From an uncultured Methanosarcinales archaeon (GTDB taxonomy: Archaea > Nanobdellota > Nanobdellia > Woesearchaeales > DATDXC01), in NCBI GenBank assembly GCA_964510025.1, contig CAZDZV010000010.1:1-58135 (forward strand): DNA of 58,135 bases, written 5' to 3'. Made by a program: the position numbers and the translations under genes. Below the pieces are notes generated by a model. It had not been told where the DNA came from and did no database searches. It saw only the letters and a list, made by a program, of their open reading frames with translations. This document shows, piece by piece, positions 33,909 to 58,135 of this stretch. How positions within the stretch are numbered: the first letter of the stretch is position 1; each line of letters opens with the position of its first letter.

Positions 33909-34181
33909 GGGAAGACTAGGCTGGGAGGTTAGCGCTCTCCTGTTACCGTAAACACGCTTTAGACGGAGCCGAAACCAGAGGAGAGGCATTGGCTGTTATT
34001 TTTGGTCTTGAGCTGGACGTTGAGACTCTGTCCTCTGGGATTGATATTTTAGTGAAGCAGGTCAGGTCAGGAATGAAGCAGCCTTAAGCTTCAATATTGA
34101 TGCTCGGAGGGTAGCGGAGTTGAGAAAGGCTTGAGGTAACCAAGGATAGTGGTCTCTGTCCATCTTTTGGTGCGTCTTCCT
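33909..34181 (+). ncRNA. ffs: Archaeal signal recognition particle (7S) RNA
   Basis: 5' GGGAAGACTAGGCTGGGAGGTTAG Alu-like start; helix-8 signature CAGG-TCA-GGAA-TGA-AGCAG near 34063-34081; terminal helix GGGAAGAC/GTCTTCCT; helix 5 CCAGAGG/TCTTTTGG; about 273 nt; TATA-like element upstream. Confidence 0.92.
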
Positions 34182-37247: not shown

Positions 37248-38888
37248 CTATTTCCCATAGCAGTTCTTTCCGATAAATTTCTGCCTGAAGGTCTTGAGGA
37301 ATGGGGTCATCTCACGCTGCGGAGGCCTTACCTCTTTAAGCCTTGCGTCTATCTGTCCATCTGTAAGCTTTACGTTGAGCTTTCTGTTAGGAACATCAAT
37401 CTCGATCACGTCTCCGTCCTTTATTGCAGCTATTGCTCCGCCATTAAATGCTTCCATCTCAACATGTCCTACGCATGGCCCTGATGTTCCGCCAGAGAAC
37501 CTTCCATCTGTTATAAGCGCCACTTTCTTGTAGCCGGCTCCTTTAATGGCATCAGTAGGGGTCAGCATCTCGGGCATGCCTGGTGCTCCTGCAGGGCCCA
37601 TAAAGCTCAAGACTACTACATCGCCTTCCCCTATCTTTTTCTGCTCGATTGCCTCAAGCAGGTCTGCCTCTGAAGTAAAGACCTTTGCTGGGCCTGAATG
37701 CTGCATCATCTCAGGCTGGACCGCTGTCTGCTTTATCACAGAAGAATCTGCAATGTTTCCTCTCAGCACAGCTATCCCTCCCTGCCTAAAGAAAGGATTA
37801 TCCAAGGGCCTTATAACATCATCATCCAGGACCCTGCCTTGTGCTGCGATCTCCTTTATTGTTTTTCCGTTGACTGTTGGAGAATCCTTGAGCATGCCTT
37901 TTATACGGGACAGTACCCCGGAAATTCCCCCTGCCCTGTAAAGATCTGCCATCTCATAGTCGCCAGCAGGTATGAGCTTGCATATGTTTGGAGTCTCCTT
38001 AGCTACATTGTCAAACATGCGTATGTCTATGTCAATACCAAGTTCTCTTGCTATTGCTGGAATGTGCAAGACAGCGTTTGTTGAGCCCCCCATTGTCATA
38101 TCCACCCTTATGCCATTTTCAAACGCTTGTTTTGTCATGATATTGGAGGGCCTTATATTCTTCTTCACCAGCTCGACGATCTTCTTTCCGGTCTCATAAG
38201 CTTGTTTCTTCTTTTCAGGATCCAGAGCAGGCGTAGCAGCACATCCGGTCAGAGACATGCCTACTGTCTCTGTGAAGCACGCCATTGTGTTTGCCGTATA
38301 TAGGCCAACACATGATCCTGCTCCGCAGCCCATGCAGCCCCTCATCTGCTGCTCTGCCTGTTCTTCTGTAATCTTGCCAGCTTTGACCTGTCCTGTCAAT
38401 CCAAATCCCTGTATAGGGTGGCATTTCTTGCCGTCCTTGATGTTGGCTTTCATGGGGCCGCCTGTCAGCATTATCGCTGGGATGTCCAGACGGCCTGCTG
38501 CCATGAGCATCCCCGGAGTTATCTTATCGCAGTTCGTGACACCAACCCAACCGTCCAGGGAGTGAGACAGCATCATTATCTCTATGTTATCTGCTATGTG
38601 CTCTCGTGATGGTAGGCTTAGCCTCATCTCTACGTACATGGCAATACCGTCGCAGACACCCGGAACACCCCATTCAAAGGGAACCCCTCCGGCATCCCTT
38701 ATGCCCTTTTTTACCTCTTTTGTAAGCTCATTAAGGTGGATGTGGCCTGGAATGATATCGTTATAGGAATTAGCTATGCCAATAAATGGCTTGTTCTTAT
38801 CAAAATCCTCTGGCTTTACGCCCGAAGACATAAGCAAGGCCCTATGTGGAAGGGTCTCAGCCCCTTTCTTAAGTATTTCTGAACGCAT
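37248..38888 (-). CDS. ilvD: Dihydroxy-acid dehydratase
   Basis: IPGHIHL, VCDGIAM, SLPSRE, CDKITPG, GAGSC.GLYTANTM, GGSTN, GAPGMPEML, TDGRFSGG. Confidence 0.96.
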   Translation of the reverse strand: MRSEILKKGAETLPHRALLMSSGVKPEDFDKNKPFIGIANSYNDIIPGHIHLNELTKEVKKGIRDAGGVPFEWGVPGVCDGIAMYVEMRLSLPSREHIADNIEIMMLSHSLDGWVGVTNCDKITPGMLMAAGRLDIPAIMLTGGPMKANIKDGKKCHPIQGFGLTGQVKAGKITEEQAEQQMRGCMGCGAGSCVGLYTANTMACFTETVGMSLTGCAATPALDPEKKKQAYETGKKIVELVKKNIRPSNIMTKQAFENGIRVDMTMGGSTNAVLHIPAIARELGIDIDIRMFDNVAKETPNICKLIPAGDYEMADLYRAGGISGVLSRIKGMLKDSPTVNGKTIKEIAAQGRVLDDDVIRPLDNPFFRQGGIAVLRGNIADSSVIKQTAVQPEMMQHSGPAKVFTSEADLLEAIEQKKIGEGDVVVLSFMGPAGAPGMPEMLTPTDAIKGAGYKKVALITDGRFSGGTSGPCVGHVEMEAFNGGAIAAIKDGDVIEIDVPNRKLNVKLTDGQIDARLKEVRPPQREMTPFLKTFRQKFIGKNCYGK

Positions 38889-38932: not shown

Positions 38933-38953
38933 GTTGTACTTTTTAAGTACAAC
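38933..38953. promoter_or_regulatory. Palindromic operator GTTGTAC-N7-GTACAAC (ilvD promoter)
   Basis: GTTGTAC TTTTTAA GTACAAC directly upstream of the ilvD TATA box; identical arms recur at 51650-51670. Confidence 0.75.
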
Positions 38954-49821: not shown

Positions 49822-50352
49822 TTAGAGCTGTCTATGCCTGTTTCTATCGGAAGTCCCCCGGCTTCCTGTGCGGTTTTTTCCTATGTAGCTAAGCAAGCCT
49901 CCTGCTTTGATTATATCTATAGCAAACTTCGGAAAGGGGGTAAATTTATATTCTTTTTTGTTTTTTGCTTGAATGATAATTCCTTTTTCGATATCTATCT
50001 CCAGTTCATCGCCATCCCTGATTTTCCTCGAAATTCCCTTGCATTCAATTGCGTAAAAACCGTTGTTTATGCAGTTTCTGAAAAATATCCTGGCGAAAGA
50101 GCTGGCTATTACTGCCTTTATGCCGGCACCTCTCAGCGCCCAGACTGCATGCTCCCTGCTAGAACCGCATCCAAAATTATTCCCTGCTACAATAAAATCT
50201 CCCGGCTTCACTTTCTTGACAAAGCCTTCGTCTAGGTCTTCCAGCGCGTGCTGAGCCAGCTCTTCTTCATTGTCTGTGTTGAGGTATCTTGCAGGAATGA
50301 TTAGATCTGTATCTATATCATCTCTGTTGTAGACATGGGCTTTGCCCCTCAT
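49822..50352 (-). CDS. leuD: 3-isopropylmalate dehydratase small subunit
   Basis: [33 protein letters not shown]. Confidence 0.93.
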
Positions 50353-51614
50353 TTTATGTACCTCCTCGGATCTGCAATCTTCCCTTCAATAGCTGATGCA
50401 GCTACTGTTGCTGGTGATGCCAGGTAAACCTCAGATTTCGGATGGCCCATCCTCCCCACAAAATTCCTATTGGTTGAGGAGATGCATCTCTCTCCTTCGG
50501 CCAAGATGCCCATATGGCCTCCAAGACATGCACCGCATGTAGGTGTAGAGACAGCTGCGCCAAAGTCCATGAATATGTCAAGCAAACCTTCATGGTTTGC
50601 CTGTTTCCAGATTTCTGTCGTTGCCGGCACTACAATCATCCTTGTATCCTTGGCAATTTTTTCACCTTTTACTGTCGCGGCCGCTATTCTTAAGTCTTCT
50701 ATCCTTCCATTTGTGCAGCTTCCGAGCCATGCCTGGTCAATTTTGATCCCTTTGATCTCTGAGACTGGTCTTCCGTTGCTGGGCAGGCTAGGCAGTGCAA
50801 CTACTGGTTCTAGTTTTGAGATGTCACATTCCTTAACATGGGAATATTCAGCATCCTTGTCAGATCTGACTATCTGATATTTCTTTTCAGTCCGCTTCTT
50901 AACATAGCCTGCAATCTTTTCATCTGCTTCCATTATGCCGGACTTAGCTCCTGCTTCTATTGCCATGTTTGTTATTGTCATCCTTGCCTCTACTGAAAGC
51001 TGCCTTATTGCAGGACCAGTAAATTCCATTGCCTTGTACAAGGCCCCATCTACCCCGATGTCAGATATTATGTGGAGTATTATATCCTTAGAGTACACGC
51101 CTCTGGGCAACTTCCCATCTAGTACAAATTTCATAGACTCCGGAACCTTGAACCATAGATTTCCTGTGGCTAAGGCCGCTGCAAGATCTGTCGAGCCGAC
51201 ACCTGTTGAAAAGGCTCCGAAAGCGCCATATGTACAAGTATGAGAATCAGCGCCTATGATCAGTTCGCCCGGCAAGATGTGGCCCTGTTCGGGCAGCAAG
51301 GCATGACAGACACCATGTTTTCCCACTTCGTAATAATTCTTGATGTCGCATTTCTGCACCCAGCGCCTCAGCCTTCTGGCAAGCTCTGCCGACTTAATAT
51401 CCTTGTTAGGGACAAAATGATCCGGCGTCACTATCACCTTTTCTTTGTTGAATACCTTGTTAATGCCCCTTTCATCTAGCATAGAAATTGCAGGGGGGGT
51501 CGTCACATCATGGCACATTATTATATCTATAGCTGCATTGATTATTTCTCCAGGCTTCACAGATTCCTTATCAGAGTGTTGGGCCAGTATCTTTTCAGTT
51601 ATTGTCATTGACAT
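50349..51614 (-). CDS. leuC: 3-isopropylmalate dehydratase large subunit
   Basis: [47 protein letters not shown] 51614 is 30 nt from the TATA box. Confidence 0.94.
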
Positions 51615-51649
51615 ACAGAACAATAAATCCTGCACATATATAAATATAT

Positions 51650-51670
51650 GTTGTACTATTTATGTACAAC
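51650..51670. promoter_or_regulatory. Palindromic operator GTTGTAC-N7-GTACAAC between divergent leuC and TrmB-like promoters
   Basis: GTTGTAC TATTTAT GTACAAC, with the same arms, spacing and TATA-adjacent context as at 38933. Confidence 0.78.
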
Positions 51671-51711
51671 TTTTGGAAAAATTTAAATATCCTGTCACTC
51701 TACCAATGAAT

Positions 51712-52434
51712 ATGGAACCTGTACTGATAAAGGCCGGATTGACATCAAATGAATCAGCCATATACCTTCTGCTGCTGAAATCAGAGGAAGCTATTGCATC
51801 TGACATAGCCAAAAAGACCAACATATCAAGACCACACGTATATGATTCTATAAACAGGCTTATAGAAAAGGGGCTGGTATCTTATGTGATAAAAAACAGC
51901 AAAAAATACTTCAGGGCGGCAAATCCGGAGGAACTCATAAACTATATGGACGAAGAAAAGGACAAGATTGAAAACAAGAAAAAAGACATCAGGAAGATCC
52001 TGCCTGATTTAGAGAAGATCCATAAAGATAAAAAAGCAAAAACATCTGTAGAAGTATTTGAGGGCAAAGAAGGCCTGAAGACCGTGCTTATGGATATTGT
52101 CAACTATGGAAAAAATTTTATCGCTTTCGGAGCTACCCACAAATTCGAAGAGGTCCTTCCTGTATTTTCCAAGATATTTGTAAAACGAAGAGAACAGAAG
52201 AAGATATACGGCAATATACTGGTGGTCAAGGGGGAGAAGCCTGTGAAAACCAGGATGAACAATTACAGGTGGATACCAAAGGAGTACTCGATGCCCAGCT
52301 CTACAATCATTTACGGCAACAAGACAGCGACGCTCCTATGGAGCGGCATCCTCGGCATAGTGATAGACAGCAAAGAGGTCGCTGATTCATACAGAAGCTA
52401 TTTTAAGCTGCTGTGGAAGATTGGGAAGGAATAG
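51712..52434 (+). CDS. TrmB-family transcriptional regulator
   Basis: GLTSNESAIYLLLL...DIAKKTNISRPHVYDSINRLIEKGLV (TrmB HTH), VEVFEGKEG, C-terminal effector domain (IYGNK...SYFKLLW). TATA at 51682, 30 nt before ATG 51712. Confidence 0.88.
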   Translation: MEPVLIKAGLTSNESAIYLLLLKSEEAIASDIAKKTNISRPHVYDSINRLIEKGLVSYVIKNSKKYFRAANPEELINYMDEEKDKIENKKKDIRKILPDLEKIHKDKKAKTSVEVFEGKEGLKTVLMDIVNYGKNFIAFGATHKFEEVLPVFSKIFVKRREQKKIYGNILVVKGEKPVKTRMNNYRWIPKEYSMPSSTIIYGNKTATLLWSGILGIVIDSKEVADSYRSYFKLLWKIGKE

Positions 52435-52747: not shown

Positions 52748-53359
52748 TTGCTTATGCTGACTGAGATAGTAGCTTTTTTGGTTATGTTGAATCCGTTTGC
52801 CTTGTTCTTATATCTAGAACCGGTAATGGAGCAGCTAAAGGACAAAATATTCTACAAAGTGCTCCTCAGAGCCAGCCTAATATCCCTAGCAATATTCTTT
52901 GTCTTCCTTCTATCCGGCACTTTCCTTTTTGAAAACGTTTTCAGAATCGACTTTGAGGCTTTCAGGATATTCGGGGGCATTGTAATATTCTCTTTTGCTT
53001 ACTTTTATATCGTAAAGGGGCATAAGGCGCTTATCACCATGAAAGAAAATCTAGATGACCTTGCCGCTGAGATTGCCCTGCCATTCATGATAGGTGCCGG
53101 GACCATCTCATTGACAATCATCATGGGAAAGATGTTTGACATGCTAAGCGGACTTCTGCTCCTGATAGCAATCCTAGGGACCAACTACCTGATAATAATG
53201 TTCCTGAAATACCTAAGAGACAATCTGGCCAAAAAGAAGCTGAAGATAGCATTTGACAAGAATATGGAGATATTGCTAAGGCTAAATGGTTTTTTTGTAG
53301 GAGCTATCGGGGTAAATATGGTACTAACAGGGATACAAAATATAATGCTAGCCCCTTGA
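52748..53359 (+). CDS. MarC family integral membrane protein
   Basis: NPF, FRIFGGI, ALPFMIGAGTIS, RLNGFFVGAIGV; about 6 TM segments. Confidence 0.85.
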   Translation: MLMLTEIVAFLVMLNPFALFLYLEPVMEQLKDKIFYKVLLRASLISLAIFFVFLLSGTFLFENVFRIDFEAFRIFGGIVIFSFAYFYIVKGHKALITMKENLDDLAAEIALPFMIGAGTISLTIIMGKMFDMLSGLLLLIAILGTNYLIIMFLKYLRDNLAKKKLKIAFDKNMEILLRLNGFFVGAIGVNMVLTGIQNIMLAP

Positions 53360-53836
53360 AACTGCGGTTACGCCTGTCCTCGATATCTCTTTTATTCCGA
53401 ACTGCTTCATGAGGTCAATGAAGGCGTCTATCTTAGCTGGCTCACCTATCAGCTCTGCTGTTACCGATTTCTGTGTGATATCAACTATCTTAGTCTTATA
53501 GATTTTGGTGTACCTTAAAATCTCTTCTTTGGCCTTTTTGTTCGGAATTGCCACCTTGATGAGGCAGAGCTCACGGATAACTGACCTATCCTCCGGCATC
53601 TCGATAACTTTTATTGTGTCTACCAGCTTATTCACCTGCTTTTCTACCTGCTCGAGCGTGGCATCATCCCCGATAACTGTAAAAACCATCTTGCTGATGC
53701 CTTTCTTTGTCGTCTTTCCAACTGTTATAGTGTCTATGTTAAACCCTCTTCTGGCAAACATGCCTGCAATCCTTGTCAGAACCCCTGGCTGATCCTCAAC
53801 CAGCATAGCAATCACATGACGTCTTTCCTTGCTCAT
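53348..53836 (-). CDS. ilvN: Acetolactate synthase small (regulatory) subunit
   Basis: LVEDQPGVLTRIAGMFARRGFNI, EQVEKQVNKLVD, REL.LIKV, EISRTG. Confidence 0.95.
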   Translation of the reverse strand: MSKERRHVIAMLVEDQPGVLTRIAGMFARRGFNIDTITVGKTTKKGISKMVFTVIGDDATLEQVEKQVNKLVDTIKVIEMPEDRSVIRELCLIKVAIPNKKAKEEILRYTKIYKTKIVDITQKSVTAELIGEPAKIDAFIDLMKQFGIKEISRTGVTAVSRG

Positions 53837-53837
53837 T

Positions 53838-55553
53838 TTATTCACCTTTGAAAAATTTTCCAGGAGCGGCCATACAACCACCAAAAGCATCCTTTATGTG
53901 GCCTCCGGGCGGCAGCATCGGCAGAATATTTGATTCTTTTTCTATCAATACATCTATCAAGGTTGTCTCTTTGTTCTTTAGTGCCTTTTTCAGCGAAGGA
54001 ACCAGCTCCTCTTTCTTCTTGACCTTAATGCCGTCCAAGCCGTAGGCCTGCGCAACCTTTACAAAATCTGGACTTTCCCCTAGTGAAACTTCTGAATAAC
54101 GCTTTTCAAAGAACAGTTCAAGCCACTGCCGGACCATGCCAAGCCACGAATTGTTCATTATAATGGGGATGACTTTGATCCCTGCTTCCTTTACTGTCGC
54201 CAGCTCCTGGATAGTCATCTGGAAAGATCCATCTCCATCTACCAGAAAAACATTTGCATCTGGTTTAGCTACCTTTGCGCCGATGGCTGCCGGAAAGCCA
54301 AAACCCATTGTTCCTGCTCCGCCAGAGCTGATGAATGTCCGGGGCTTCCTAAGCCTCAAGAAATGCCCAGCAAACATCTGATGCTGCCCTACTCCTGTTA
54401 CAACTATATCATCAGGCTTCAAAACTGAATTCAGCGCCTGCATCACATCTTTAGGGTGGATCCTTGCTGTTTTTGGCACTTCGACGCATCGGTCGCAGCA
54501 AGCCTTGAATTCCTTTATTTCACTAATCCATTTTTCTTTCGGCTTTGGCTTAAGTTTCTTAAGCTCCCTGACCAGCTCCACTAGGACATTCTTTGCATCT
54601 CCAACTATAGGTATATCTACAGAAACATTCTTTCCTATCTCAGCCGGATCTATGTCAGCATGGATTACCTTAGCATTTTCTGCATAGGTCTTCAAGCTGC
54701 CTGTAATTCTGTCAGAGAACCTGCAGCCTAAAGTGATAAGAAGGTCGGTCTTTACAGTAGCATAGTTGGCTATTTTCCTTCCGTGCATCCCTACAGAGCC
54801 AAGACTAAGCGGATGATATTCGTCAAAAACCCCTTTGGCCATGTATGTAGTTGTAACCGGTATCTGTGCAAGATCTACGAGCTCGTGCAGCTCTTTTGAA
54901 GCCCCTGATATAAGGACGCCCTGGCCGATTAGCAGCAGAGGCCTTTCAGATGAGACTACAGCTTCAGCTGCCCGCTTAACCTGTAGCGGATTAGGCTTTA
55001 TTGTAGGCTGAAATCCTGGAATCTTGATTTCCTTTGGAAATGGCTCTGTCACTTCACCGGATTGAGTGTCTTTGGGCAGGTCTATGTAGATGGGGCCTGG
55101 CCTGCCCTCAGTGGCAATCTTGAAAGCCTTCATGACTGTTGAAGCCATCTGATTTGGAGACCTAACCTGAAAATTATGCTTGGTGATAGGCAGGGTGATG
55201 CCCATCATATCTGTTTCCTGGAATGCATCATTTCCGATCAAGGCAGTTGGCACCTGACCGCCCAGTGCAATAATAGGAACAGAATCCATATAAGCATCTG
55301 CTATACCTGTGACTAAGTTGCAGGCTCCTGGCCCAGAGGTCGCTATGCATACAGCCGGCTTTCCAGATGCTCTTGCATATCCTTCTGCAGCATGCGCTGC
55401 AGCCTGCTCATGCCTAACTAGGACATTCCTAATCTTTCCTTTATAATCTAGATAAGCGTCAAACAAAGGTATGACAGATCCACCTGGAAATCCAAATGTG
55501 ACGTCAACTCCCTGTTTGAGCAATGTCTCAACCAATGCGTGTGCTCCATTCAT
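53838..55553 (-). CDS. ilvB: Acetolactate synthase large subunit (biosynthetic type)
   Basis: FGFPGG, RHEQ, TSGPGA.N, DAFQE, GMHG, VGQHQM, GDGSFQM...NN, GMVRQW. Confidence 0.95.
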   Translation of the reverse strand: MNGAHALVETLLKQGVDVTFGFPGGSVIPLFDAYLDYKGKIRNVLVRHEQAAAHAAEGYARASGKPAVCIATSGPGACNLVTGIADAYMDSVPIIALGGQVPTALIGNDAFQETDMMGITLPITKHNFQVRSPNQMASTVMKAFKIATEGRPGPIYIDLPKDTQSGEVTEPFPKEIKIPGFQPTIKPNPLQVKRAAEAVVSSERPLLLIGQGVLISGASKELHELVDLAQIPVTTTYMAKGVFDEYHPLSLGSVGMHGRKIANYATVKTDLLITLGCRFSDRITGSLKTYAENAKVIHADIDPAEIGKNVSVDIPIVGDAKNVLVELVRELKKLKPKPKEKWISEIKEFKACCDRCVEVPKTARIHPKDVMQALNSVLKPDDIVVTGVGQHQMFAGHFLRLRKPRTFISSGGAGTMGFGFPAAIGAKVAKPDANVFLVDGDGSFQMTIQELATVKEAGIKVIPIIMNNSWLGMVRQWLELFFEKRYSEVSLGESPDFVKVAQAYGLDGIKVKKKEELVPSLKKALKNKETTLIDVLIEKESNILPMLPPGGHIKDAFGGCMAAPGKFFKGE

Positions 55554-55579
55554 TTTTTTCTACCTCCAAAGGCTAAATG

Positions 55580-55609
55580 CACTTTCTCAGTGGTGTTCTG
55601 AGCAAAGTG
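55580..55609 (-). other. Intergenic stem-loop between leuA and ilvB
   Basis: CACTTT-G-CTCAG-AACACCA-CTGAG-AAAGTG: an 11-bp stem with one bulge. Confidence 0.55.
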
Positions 55610-55611
55610 TG

Positions 55612-57165
55612 TCAATGCTGTGCATGTATCCTTTTCTTCTTGAAGTTAAGGGCTTTGTTGATACCTTTTACAAGGGCAACTCCTGAAGCCATGATGATAT
55701 CTTCATTGACAGCTTCTGCCTTAAAGATGTTCCCTTTAGCATCCTGGACCTTGATCGATACATCAGCCAAAGCGTCAGTACCTCCTGTAATTGCCTTAAG
55801 CCCGTATTCCTTAAGCTTGATGGACGGGTCTATCATCCTGCTAATCGCATGAGCCACAGCATCTACGGGGCCAACGCCCCTGCCCCTCCCTGTATTTAAT
55901 TTGCCGTCTATAACCAACGACACAACAGCTTCAGGTGTTGTCTTATTTCCTGCTGTGACCTTTATCTCATCAAGCTTGATGATCTCCTCTTCTTCTGAGA
56001 GCTCCCCTGCTATGTCTGTCGCTATTGCTATTATGTCTTCCCTCATGACTTCTTTCTGCTTGTCGGCCAAATCCTTAACCTTAGCAATTACCCTTTCTAT
56101 CTGGGCTTTTGAAAAATCATACCCCATCTCCTTTAATATGGATTCAACAGCATGCTTTCCGGAGTGCTTACCGATAACTATGTTGGTACCGACCCAGCCG
56201 ATCTCCTCTGGTTTCATAATCTCGTAGGTCTGCTTGCTTGTCAAAATACCGTGCTGGTGTATACCTGCTTCGTGTGCAAATGCATTTCCACCTACAATTG
56301 CCTTGTTTCTCTGTACCTGTAAGCCGGTTAAAGATGAGACCAGCTGAGATGTTCTGAATATTTCCTTTGTTTTTATCCCTGTGGTGAAGCCTCTAAAAAA
56401 ATCCTTCCTGGTCCTTATATTCATCACGATCTCTTCCATGCTGCAGTTACCTGCCCTCTCCCCTATACCATTTATTGTGCATTCTACCTGTGTTGCACCA
56501 TTTTTTACAGCTTCAAGCGAATTAGCCACAGCAAGACCAAGGTCATTATGGCAATGTACACTGATTACCACCTTGTTCTTCTTAATCAAGGTGCCCAGCT
56601 TCTCAAACACATACCGTATCCTATGGCCAAATTCCTCTGGTTCAGCATAACCAACTGTATCAGGTATGTTTATAGTAGTCGCCCCTGCCTCAATTGCTGC
56701 ACGTGCCACATCGCACATATAATCCAGGTCTGTCCTTGCTGCATCTTCTGGAGAAAATTCGATGTCATCACAGTAGGATTTTGCATGCTTGACAGAATCA
56801 ATGGTCATCCGGATTATTTCTTGTTTGGATTTTCTAAGCTTTTTCTGCCTGTGGATATCAGATGTGGCGATGAAAGTATGTATTCTTGGCCTTCCGGAGT
56901 ACTTCACAGCTTGCCAGGTCCTATCGATATCTGCTTTCTTTGTCCTTGCCAATCCGCATATTATAGGGCCTTGGACTTTTTTGGCTATAGCCTTAACTGC
57001 CTCGAAATCACCTTCAGAGCTTATAGGAAAACCTGCTTCGATCACATCCACACCTAACTTGGCTAGCTGCTTCGCTACGATGATCTTCTCCTGATGCGTC
57101 AGAGACGCACCCGGAGACTGTTCTCCATCTCTTAGGGTTGTGTCGAAAATGATAATTTTTGGCAT
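55612..57165 (-). CDS. leuA: 2-isopropylmalate synthase
   Basis: DTTLRDGEQSPG, IEAGFP, HTFIATS, PDTVG, HCHNDLG, GERAGN, HEAGIHQ, C-terminal regulatory domain (GPVDA). SD AAGGTGA before ATG 57165. Confidence 0.94.
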   Translation of the reverse strand: MPKIIIFDTTLRDGEQSPGASLTHQEKIIVAKQLAKLGVDVIEAGFPISSEGDFEAVKAIAKKVQGPIICGLARTKKADIDRTWQAVKYSGRPRIHTFIATSDIHRQKKLRKSKQEIIRMTIDSVKHAKSYCDDIEFSPEDAARTDLDYMCDVARAAIEAGATTINIPDTVGYAEPEEFGHRIRYVFEKLGTLIKKNKVVISVHCHNDLGLAVANSLEAVKNGATQVECTINGIGERAGNCSMEEIVMNIRTRKDFFRGFTTGIKTKEIFRTSQLVSSLTGLQVQRNKAIVGGNAFAHEAGIHQHGILTSKQTYEIMKPEEIGWVGTNIVIGKHSGKHAVESILKEMGYDFSKAQIERVIAKVKDLADKQKEVMREDIIAIATDIAGELSEEEEIIKLDEIKVTAGNKTTPEAVVSLVIDGKLNTGRGRGVGPVDAVAHAISRMIDPSIKLKEYGLKAITGGTDALADVSIKVQDAKGNIFKAEAVNEDIIMASGVALVKGINKALNFKKKRIHAQH

Positions 57166-57207
57166 TATATTCACCTTTAGGTTTAAATTTTATAAAATTT
57201 GTCCTTG

Positions 57208-57237
57208 GCCCTCAGTCCTTGTAGTAAGAACTAGGGC
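57208..57237 (-). promoter_or_regulatory. Attenuator-like hairpin immediately after the leader ORF
   Basis: GCCCT-AGTTCTT-ACTAC-AAGGACT-G-AGGGC, a 12-bp stem starting 1 nt after the leader stop. A second CAAGGAC just downstream offers an alternative pairing. Confidence 0.6.
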
Positions 57238-57238
57238 A

Positions 57239-57301
57239 TCATAACACTAGAAGCAATGAAACTAGCAAAAACCCATTGTCAGCCTTGCCAGTCGATTTCA
57301 T
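57239..57301 (-). CDS. Putative leu/ilv leader peptide MKSTGKADNGFLLVSLLLVL
   Basis: 20 codons; the last 9 are TTG CTA GTT TCA TTG CTT CTA GTG TTA (6 Leu, 2 Val). TATA TTTAAATA at 57326-57333 is 32 nt before the ATG. Directly upstream of leuA. Confidence 0.72.
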   Translation of the reverse strand: MKSTGKADNGFLLVSLLLVL

Positions 57302-57359
57302 AATCCTATGGAAATCATTAGGTTATATTTAAAGGTATGTATTAAAAAAAGAAAAAAAA

Positions 57360-58022
57360 TTATAATTTCTTTAGCATCTTCGACATAATCTTATCTGCAT
57401 GCTTCCTTATGCCTAAGCCAAATCCAATTCCGATGGCCAACGATAAAGCCAGGACAATTCCAGATAAGATTATCAGCAAGGTTGTTTCAGCCAAAGCTAT
57501 CTGTATCCCTATCTCCTTCAAAGCTATACTCAAGAAGAAGATTATAATCACAATCTTTACGATTGAACCGATCAGCTTTATGCCTTTTACCTTTTTGGCC
57601 TTTAAGACTTTATCTTCAGCAAAATCAGCAAGAACCATGCCAACTATCATGATGATCACTGCTGCCAGAAGATGAGGCAACCAAGATGCCACGCTGTTCA
57701 GCATCATTGACAGTTCGCCAAGGTTGATCAAGCTAGCTGCTGGCGATAGGAATGCGATAAATATCCACCACTTCACCAGGGCTCCTAAAATATATGGGGC
57801 ATCCAGGCCTCCTAGAGAATCTGCCCTTCCTGTCTTAACAAGCCATTTTTGAAGCTTTGTGTGCTCTAAGCCTTTTCTAACAACCAATCCCACAAATAAT
57901 CCAATAAAATAGCCTATCACTATGGTTAGCAAAGCTGCCAGCAAGCCAGGCAGATAGCTCACAACAGAATTCCACAGATTAACTGCTGGATCCAAGATTG
58001 CCATTTCTGCAATTGTTTCCAT
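57360..58022 (-). CDS. Mechanosensitive-channel-associated TM-helix repeat protein (CmpX-like)
   Basis: Repeated (Y/W)LP.LLAA...++.G motif, ALSLAIGIGFGLG; SD GAGGTGA before ATG 58022. Confidence 0.78.
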   Translation of the reverse strand: METIAEMAILDPAVNLWNSVVSYLPGLLAALLTIVIGYFIGLFVGLVVRKGLEHTKLQKWLVKTGRADSLGGLDAPYILGALVKWWIFIAFLSPAASLINLGELSMMLNSVASWLPHLLAAVIIMIVGMVLADFAEDKVLKAKKVKGIKLIGSIVKIVIIIFFLSIALKEIGIQIALAETTLLIILSGIVLALSLAIGIGFGLGIRKHADKIMSKMLKKL

Positions 58023-58135
58023 TAATATCACCTCTTTTTTTATCATTTTGACATTAATCAAATATAAAGTTTTCGATAAAATTGGGATTTATCAGATAAA
58101 TAGACACTTTAATATCAAGGAAAATGTCTTTAAAG

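Follow-up and report, generated by a model that had tools for sequence, protein, structure and literature searches.

A conserved Leu/Val-rich leader frame ahead of leuA-ilvB-ilvN in a DPANN archaeon, a candidate ribosome-read sensor of aminoacyl-tRNA supply

Introduction

Leader-peptide attenuation is a textbook bacterial mechanism that relies on coupled transcription and translation, and the Escherichia coli leaders ivbL (of ilvBN), leuL (of leu; Rfam family Leu_leader, RF00512) and ilvL (of ilvGMEDA) are classical ribosome-mediated transcription attenuators. Here we describe a leader from an uncultured DPANN archaeon, found in a stretch of 58,135 nucleotides (GenBank assembly GCA_964510025.1, contig CAZDZV010000010.1; the window, below, is this whole stretch) in which a short upstream open reading frame (uORF) rich in Leu and Val codons precedes the leuA-ilvB-ilvN operon on the minus strand. 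Judging from sequence comparisons, we consider it likely that this uORF belongs to a leader-peptide sensor through which the operon would respond to the supply of Leu- and Val-tRNA.

Among the described systems, the three E. coli leaders would be the closest in function. As in ivbL, leuL and ilvL, a short frame rich in codons for the end product stands ahead of a branched-chain operon, with Leu and Val codons for an acetohydroxyacid synthase (AHAS) operon, Leu alone for leu genes and Ile for the Ile branch. The archaeal leader differs from them in its probably leaderless start behind a TATA box, and in the absence of detected alternative helices and, in this genome, of a canonical hairpin-plus-U-run terminator, as well as in its archaeal host with a different termination machinery. 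A first-pass annotation of the window had likened the layout to that of leuL and ilvL, and in this it went too far, as the codon run here lies at the very C-terminus and extends to the stop codon, and the hairpin touches the stop.

In build, the nearest counterpart appears to be the leaderless poly-Cys short frames of mycobacteria, in which ribosomes stalled in the 3'-terminal tract prevent an inhibitory duplex (10.1101/834739). In both systems the codon tract closes the short frame at its 3' end and several loci are of one build (called a 'ribulon' in mycobacteria); here, as there, the first cistron would be leaderless and ribosome occupancy of the tract would be the signal. The poly-Cys tract is described there as pairing with the Shine-Dalgarno (SD) region of the next gene, a case of translational control (10.1101/834739), whereas the leuA run does not do so; the conserved partner of the run is here the 5' part of the uORF, and a separate hairpin lies at the stop. 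Having neither alternative helices and a hairpin-U terminator nor a pairing of tract and SD, the leuA leader departs from the defining structures of both systems.

Two further bacterial cases show partial likeness. The leader peptide of the ilvBNC attenuator of Corynebacterium glutamicum was reportedly shown by Morbach et al. in 2000 to be made without a ribosome-binding site. Like the leader described here, it would be a branched-chain leader peptide translated without an SD ahead of ilvB, and it differs in being bacterial and, reportedly, in having three hairpins including a terminator. In the translational attenuation of ermC, stalling of a ribosome in the leader frame alters a hairpin by which the SD of the following gene is concealed (PMC10219788). 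A comparable SD-like motif, GGAAAGGAG, lies in the 3' arm of the stop hairpin of only one leader of this genome, that of the citramalate synthase gene (see below); the signal in ermC is a drug-bound ribosome, and a 2:3 alternative pairing is required (PMC10219788). At leuA the start region lies outside the hairpin and is not sequestered by it. The introduction of the same paper states in general terms, with no example, that uORFs regulate genes in archaea too (PMC10219788). Our full-text literature search, which left subscription journals mostly outside, found no archaeal leader-peptide attenuator. What the present case contributes is a DPANN host, a single genome with both a Leu/Val and an Ile leader, a connection of Val with ilvB, and tests for alternative pairings that came out negative.

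Results and Discussion

The leader frame and its terminal run

The uORF MKSTGKADNGFLLVSLLLVL consists of 20 codons plus TGA (57239..57301, minus strand; ATG at 57301, TGA at 57241-57239), with a polar and variable N-terminal half and a C-terminal half that is a Leu/Val run. The run, LLVSLLLVL (codons 12-20; 57242..57268, minus strand), continues up to the final sense codon and reads TTG CTA GTT TCA TTG CTT CTA GTG TTA, that is, six Leu spelled with four different codons, two Val and one Ser, the Leu and Val counts being those of the first-pass annotation. Upstream lies TATA box 1, TTTAAATA (57326..57333, minus strand), the putative promoter P1 of the leader, whose first base is 32 nt and whose 3' end is 24 nt ahead of the ATG, the former distance agreeing with that originally given. 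In the genome (1.70 Mb, 43.4% G+C), TATA-like octamers stand 22-24 nt ahead of the ATG of 207 genes, forming a sharp peak which, judged by its spacing, marks leaderless transcripts. With its box at 24 nt, the uORF falls within this peak, in keeping with the leaderless placement already proposed for it, and it is probably translated from a leaderless 5' end. Furthermore, a terminal branched-chain run together with a strong hairpin at the stop is found in 2 of the 43 intergenic short frames with leaderless spacing in this genome.

The operon behind the leader (53348..57165, minus strand) comprises leuA (57165-55612), ilvB (55553-53838) and ilvN (53890-53348), all assigned by Pfam, ilvB and ilvN coding for both acetolactate synthase subunits. 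LeuA is named 2-isopropylmalate synthase by NCBIfam NF002086 (712 bits, cut-off 532). As a separate observation, it also passes the bacterial leuA model TIGR00973 (661 bits, cut-off 598.7), and its closest relatives outside DPANN are bacterial, from Omnitrophota and Planctomycetales, with 52-55% identity (loci L052-L074). The leuA operon may therefore be of bacterial origin, although its leader has an archaeal build.

Conservation in relatives and match to the pathway

It had been suggested at the outset that a regulatory frame should recur upstream of leuA in relatives, keeping its Leu/Val codons despite synonymous change, and this is what was found. In 31 distinct loci leuA is preceded by a short frame that begins with a variable polar part and closes with a Leu/Val run at its C-terminus. 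These loci span two DPANN phyla by their record labels (those of the relatives of this genome reading Nanoarchaeota/Woesearchaeota). All 12 leuA orthologues (61-82% identity) found among 60 relatives carry the leader frame, and 19 further distinct loci with it, one labelled Iainarchaeum, come from public contigs. A blind pick based on TATA spacing alone, with composition ignored, returned exactly the leader frame and nothing else in 28 of the 31 loci. In an even sample of 300 genomes of the phylum, leuA orthologues are present in four, and all four have the leader; in one of them, the unpublished G278, it matches the leader of the public locus L047 exactly. A LeuA-like match is present in 41 of 121 genomes of the phylum to which the Iainarchaeum-labelled genome belongs, and within this second phylum the leader was found in 21 of the 28 loci with at least 44% LeuA identity. 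Genes of the paralogue type (40-46% identity; L015-L017, from three relatives) have no leader. Among loci labelled bacterial, 18 of 21 show no L/V/I-rich short frame, the remaining three being L063, L064 and L065, and two yielded only part of an upstream membrane gene. In contrast to the archaeal build, a Leu leader of the classical bacterial kind, complete with hairpin-plus-U terminator, is present in the bacterial-labelled L076.

The codons of the run vary while its amino acids are kept. In the last ten codons of the 31 leaders, Leu is encoded by TTA (43), TTG (26), CTT (28), CTC (5), CTA (41) and CTG (46), and all four Val codons are used; this conservation of the amino acid under a changing codon speaks for translation of the frame and not for RNA alone. 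The frames range from 16 to 44 codons and the stop nonetheless remains at the foot of the hairpin. In 26 of 30 leaders the L/V/I codons continue up to the final sense codon, and in all 30 the last of them is at most two codons from the stop; the last eight residues of the leuA leaders are Leu in 148 and Val in 63 of 232 cases (211 together), with Ile in 7.

The strongest evidence is that the composition of the run tracks the pathway: Val occurs with ilvB, and Leu alone where ilvB is lacking. When ilvB lies downstream of leuA, 37 entries have at least two Val in the last ten residues and one does not; without ilvB, two do and nine do not. The two Val-rich entries lacking ilvB are L013 and L116, of which L013 is misfiled, its ilvB overlapping leuA, so that the true exceptions to the rule are L116 and, in the opposite direction, L120. 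The p-values obtained for the match of composition to pathway, 7e-35 and 3e-7, are illustrations and not probabilities, the genomes being related.

In addition, the same genome holds a second leader, MNQSRNIDIISIIIA (contig C1:195209-195256, plus strand; locus L030), with a TATA box at 24 nt and a hairpin directly past its stop. It ends in a run of Ile and lies 39 nt ahead of the first aligned residue of a citramalate synthase (NCBIfam TIGR00977, 554.7 bits, cut-off 450), the ATG being a few nt upstream of that residue. Citramalate synthase is an entry to isoleucine synthesis. Ile-run leaders were returned by the blind pick in 9 of 11 related citramalate-synthase loci, and a further one is present in L029, where the TATA pattern overlooked it. 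The last eight residues of the citramalate-synthase leaders are Ile in 43 and Leu or Val in 7 of 80 cases. Taken together, the conservation, the codon variation, the match of Val to ilvB and this sister leader support the interpretation, offered in the first-pass annotation, that the leuA leader would sense the supply of Leu- and Val-tRNA.

RNA structure and the region behind the stop

Two helices of the leader, H1 and H2, are conserved as judged from the alignments. H1 (57261..57292, minus strand) pairs ACTGGCAA (57292-57285, codons 4-6) with TTGCTAGT (57268-57261, the first Leu-Leu-Val codons) and is present in the minimum free energy fold of this locus. H2 (57208..57237, minus strand) is a GC-based hairpin of 12 bp with one bulge, running from G57237 to C57208 and separated from the stop by a single T, at the place where it had been predicted; its energy is -15.1 kcal/mol (z = -2.83 against shuffles). 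Since H2 begins 1 nt past the stop, a ribosome cannot occupy the last codons or the stop without melting it. Taken as a whole, the 156-nt leader has an ordinary folding energy (z = -1.40 against shuffles). Across loci, the mean z of H2 is -2.26, with 19 of 31 below -2. The start of H2 falls at most 3 nt to either side of the stop (-3 to +3) in all loci but one of the 31, the exception being L012 at +7; the sequence of L036 contains Ns, which makes this locus unreliable. In distant relatives the stem sequences of H2 are entirely different.

The covariation that had been proposed as a further check is borne out. On an alignment of 14 sequences (A1), 89% of the H1 and H2 cells are paired, compared with 23-53% after sliding the partners, and the two helices together have seven pairs with changes on both sides and a covariation score that was reached by none of 500 shuffles. 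H1 contributes three such pairs (82% of cells paired), with matched changes such as GGCAA/TTGCT against GGTAA/TTACT and TAACA/TGTTA, and H2 four (94.8% of cells paired). RNAalifold on the leader alignment found H2 alone. For H1, the 5' region and the run of 24 loci pair at -12.35 kcal/mol within their own locus and at -10.40 kcal/mol across loci, a value as low as the native one being reached in none of 5000 permutations. Five alternative pairings (of the run to the H2 3' arm, of the N-terminal region to the H2 5' arm, and of the stretch behind H2 or either of its arms to the start region) gave no locus-specific complementarity (p = 0.30-0.84), and that of the run with the SD region, at -9.62 kcal/mol native and -9.71 cross-locus (permutation p = 0.56), represents generic pyrimidine-purine complementarity only. 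Of these pairings only that of H1 is locus-specific, and no terminator/antiterminator alternative was thus detected.

Behind H2 come a second CAAGGAC, the dyad AAATTTTATAAAATTT (57200-57185), an SD-like motif AAAGGTGA (57171..57178, minus strand) and the leuA ATG at 57165. The duplicated CAAGGAC had been taken to allow an alternative pairing; the duplication is present here but absent from relatives, so that the pairing is not conserved, and none of the alternative pairings is locus-specific. Similarly, the dyad is present and is mainly a second TATA box, TTTATAAA (57189..57196, minus strand; 23 nt ahead of the leuA ATG), with no conserved symmetry outside the box. The SD of leuA is where it had been placed. 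A T4 starts 10 nt past H2, merged with TATA box 2, and there is no long U-tract past the hairpin, as already remarked in the first-pass annotation; in closer relatives (e.g. L004, L035, L040, L047, L062), T4-T6 runs lie about 10-14 nt past H2. Two motifs of this region are recorded as observations in their own right: CAnYG, which borders H2 on its 3' side in 18 of 30 loci, and a U-rich CATTGTTTCT extension of it behind H2 in several leuA and citramalate-synthase leaders (L005, L041, L046, L026, L029, L031 and others). A second small frame from an NTG behind H2, suspected by eye, was dropped, the triplet often being GCG or ACG.

TATA box 2 is a probable second promoter, P2, that would give a leaderless leuA mRNA. 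The box stands 22-24 nt ahead of the leuA ATG in 12 of 30 loci, this genome included and otherwise mainly in closer relatives. In 24 of 30 related loci leuA has an SD-like motif ahead of it, so that it would normally be read from a transcript starting upstream; the motif of this genome lies within the P2 spacer and is usable only on a transcript from P1. A TATA box at leaderless spacing with an SD within the spacer is found in 11 of 30 related leuA loci, and in 13 of the 207 leaderless-spaced genes of this genome. This arrangement suggests that leuA is transcribed both with a leader, from P1, and without one, from P2.

Alternative explanations

H2 and the T-rich stretch behind it could be read as the intrinsic terminator of a bacterial-type attenuator, in which a stalled ribosome would favour an antiterminator and read-through into leuA. 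The T runs of the closer relatives and the U-rich CATTGTTTCT-type motif, which occurs behind H2 in both leader types, speak for such a terminator; nevertheless a run of at least four T within 35 nt of H2 is found in 12 of 30 loci only and one of at least five in 8, mostly in closer relatives, and this leader itself has only the T4 merged with TATA box 2. None of the five alternative pairings is locus-specific, and we know of no need for hairpins in archaeal termination. Furthermore, the sign is wrong, as a hairpin at the stop would be blocked by the terminating ribosome and freed by the stalled one; as a terminator, H2 would switch the operon off in starvation, and for this reason the bacterial-type reading does not work. 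Overall we regard it as unlikely.

Alternatively, the frame could be incidental to an RNA-only element, with H1 and H2 binding a protein or a metabolite, or with a short P1 transcript acting in trans as a small RNA. Both helices covary, the CAnYG at the edge of H2 is conserved, and relatives with T runs and a TATA box 2 could make the segment from P1 through the uORF to H2 as a separate short transcript. Against such an element stand the frame itself, which in 31 loci of differing length runs without interruption from an ATG at leaderless spacing to a stop beside the base of H2, the retention of Leu and Val through all their synonymous codons, and a composition that tracks the pathway. Neither is there any match to an Rfam family: at gathering thresholds the whole window gave the signal recognition particle (SRP) RNA only and no leader family, Leu_leader included, and at E <= 10 the region 57100-57400 gave two chance snoRNA matches (E = 6-7) and no leader family. 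This explanation is thus very improbable. Least credible of all is a small hydrophobic peptide that has a separate function, in the membrane or through binding to LeuA or AHAS, and is merely co-transcribed with leuA, for although the frame is conserved, its tail is hydrophobic and small membrane peptides are common, the tail of 7-17 residues is short for a membrane span and almost only Leu and Val (hydrophobic 9-mers of the predicted proteome being L 17.7%, A 14.9%, I 14.7%, G 13.3%, V 11.5% and F 9.3%, with L+V >= 8 in 1 of 2936 and I >= 6 likewise in 1 of 2936), its residues change with the pathway (Ile at citramalate synthase, no Val without ilvB), and the N-terminal half is unconserved as protein and covaries as RNA.

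A possible mechanism and its weak points

For the leader-peptide sensor we propose the following course of events. Transcription from P1 would start at or beside the uORF ATG and a ribosome would load on the leaderless 5' end, from where it must decode the terminal Leu/Val run, its position deciding whether H1 and H2 can fold. When charged tRNA is plentiful, the ribosome would clear the run, terminate and leave, both helices would fold, and folded H1 would hinder the loading of a new ribosome at the 5' end. With Leu or Val in short supply, ribosomes would dwell on the run, H1 would stay open, and more ribosomes could load and queue. A ribosome dwelling on the last codons would hold the base of H2 open, and could do so for long periods because the run extends to the last codon in 26 of 30 leaders. 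The state of H2 would set the expression of the genes behind it, folded H2 lowering and open H2 raising it, and P2 would probably supply a basal leaderless leuA mRNA. This occupancy model is the reading we prefer, as it could use every conserved feature.

Several points weigh against it. Considered from this genome alone, the composition of the uORF is not beyond chance: among 2791 intergenic frames of 8-60 aa that start with ATG, 58 contain seven or more L/V/I within nine residues; with the relatives compared, it is clearly beyond chance. For leuC, ilvC, ilvD, ilvE and the class I tRNA synthetases this genome yielded no leader, and none was found in 7 of the 28 second-phylum leuA loci counted above, and since the loci come from related genomes, Fisher values overstate the case. 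The structural results count here as well, both the failure of the five alternative pairings and the limited occurrence of T runs behind H2. There is also a problem of sign: while the leader is first being transcribed, a ribosome that gets to the stop quickly would cover the 5' arm of H2 with the polymerase only a little ahead, and one that stalls would leave H2 to fold. Part of the leuA expression may bypass the leader by way of P2. Moreover, H2 is too far from the leuA start to mask it. Lastly, the occupancy model is a proposal: the sensor part of the interpretation is well supported by comparison of the loci, while the regulation itself, with uORF translation, stalling, the direction of H2 action and the output, is what we infer from it.

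With respect to the output, the distance from the end of H2 to the leuA ATG is 42 nt in this genome and 36-306 nt in other relatives, L012 having 4 nt; with H2 so distant from the start, an output at leuA would have to act on termination, processing or mRNA stability. A single beta-CASP ORF is encoded in the genome; with 645 aa it would match the archaeal termination factor FttA/aCPSF1 in size. The case of citramalate synthase is different: the 3' arm of H2 in its leader carries the SD-like GGAAAGGAG and the end of H2 is 14 nt from the ATG, which makes masking of the start region the likely output there.

It is conceivable, and somewhat short of probable, that these leaders represent a widespread class of ribosome-read amino-acid sensors of archaea's own, in Leu/Val, Leu-only and Ile forms and present here in two DPANN phyla. 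Such a class would have no terminator/antiterminator switch; it would combine a leaderless uORF gated by H1 with a stop helix opened by occupancy, and its output would go through archaeal machinery, with factor-dependent (FttA/aCPSF1-type) termination, 5'-end mRNA decay or start-site masking as candidates. If the sensing proposed here is true, the ribosome-based sensing of charged tRNA would occur in a second domain of life, with leaderless mRNAs and hairpin-independent termination as its basis. DPANN archaea are usually seen as host-dependent, and the few lineages that keep branched-chain synthesis (4 of 300 other genomes sampled in the phylum) would, on this evidence, regulate it by end-product supply. 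The leaders would be a compact natural test case for the interplay of archaeal ribosome, RNA polymerase and termination or decay factors and, being short (about 130 nt) and portable, could be tested with reporters in cultivable archaea.

Genomic context and further observations

Upstream of the leader lies a membrane-protein gene (57360-58061; Pfam match MS_channel_1st_1), directly behind the stop of which there is an oligo-T stretch, T8-C-T7 (57344..57359, minus strand). Archaeal transcription terminates at oligo-T, and on this basis the stretch is a likely terminator parting the membrane-protein gene from the leader unit. The only Rfam family in the window, the archaeal SRP RNA (RF01857, 150.5 bits), is located at 33909-34181 (plus strand).

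In two related loci, L008 and L036, an extra small frame lies between leader and leuA, and the leader may thus be 190-310 nt from leuA. The extra frame of L008 codes for 53 aa with CxxC and CP motifs and overlaps the start of leuA.

Other branched-chain genes of the window show a different feature. Just two copies of the palindrome GTTGTAC-N7-GTACAAC exist in this exact form in the genome (about 38934-38952 and about 51651-51669), one a short way upstream of the TATA box of ilvD (37248-38888, minus strand) and the other likewise at leuC (50349-51635, minus strand), and a gene of the TrmB family (51445-52434, plus strand) adjoins leuC. The palindrome is probably the operator of a protein regulator; with a protein operator at ilvD and leuC and a leader at leuA, the branched-chain genes would have two layers of control.

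Upstream of genes of this genome no runs of His, Thr, Phe, Met, Arg or Pro were found, and the candidates for Trp runs are noise. A frame reading MMVNCICC, at leaderless spacing and with three Cys in the last four codons (C3:134155-134181, plus strand; L088), sits 25 nt ahead of a tRNA-like gene with the anticodon GCA (Cys), and could be due to chance or be a Cys-related leader. Additionally, three leaderless-spaced short frames have similar starts, MPRWHN or MPWWHN (C1:36019-36141, minus strand; C8:52293-52418, plus strand; C18:11370-11396, minus strand), and may represent a repeated RNA or promoter-proximal element.

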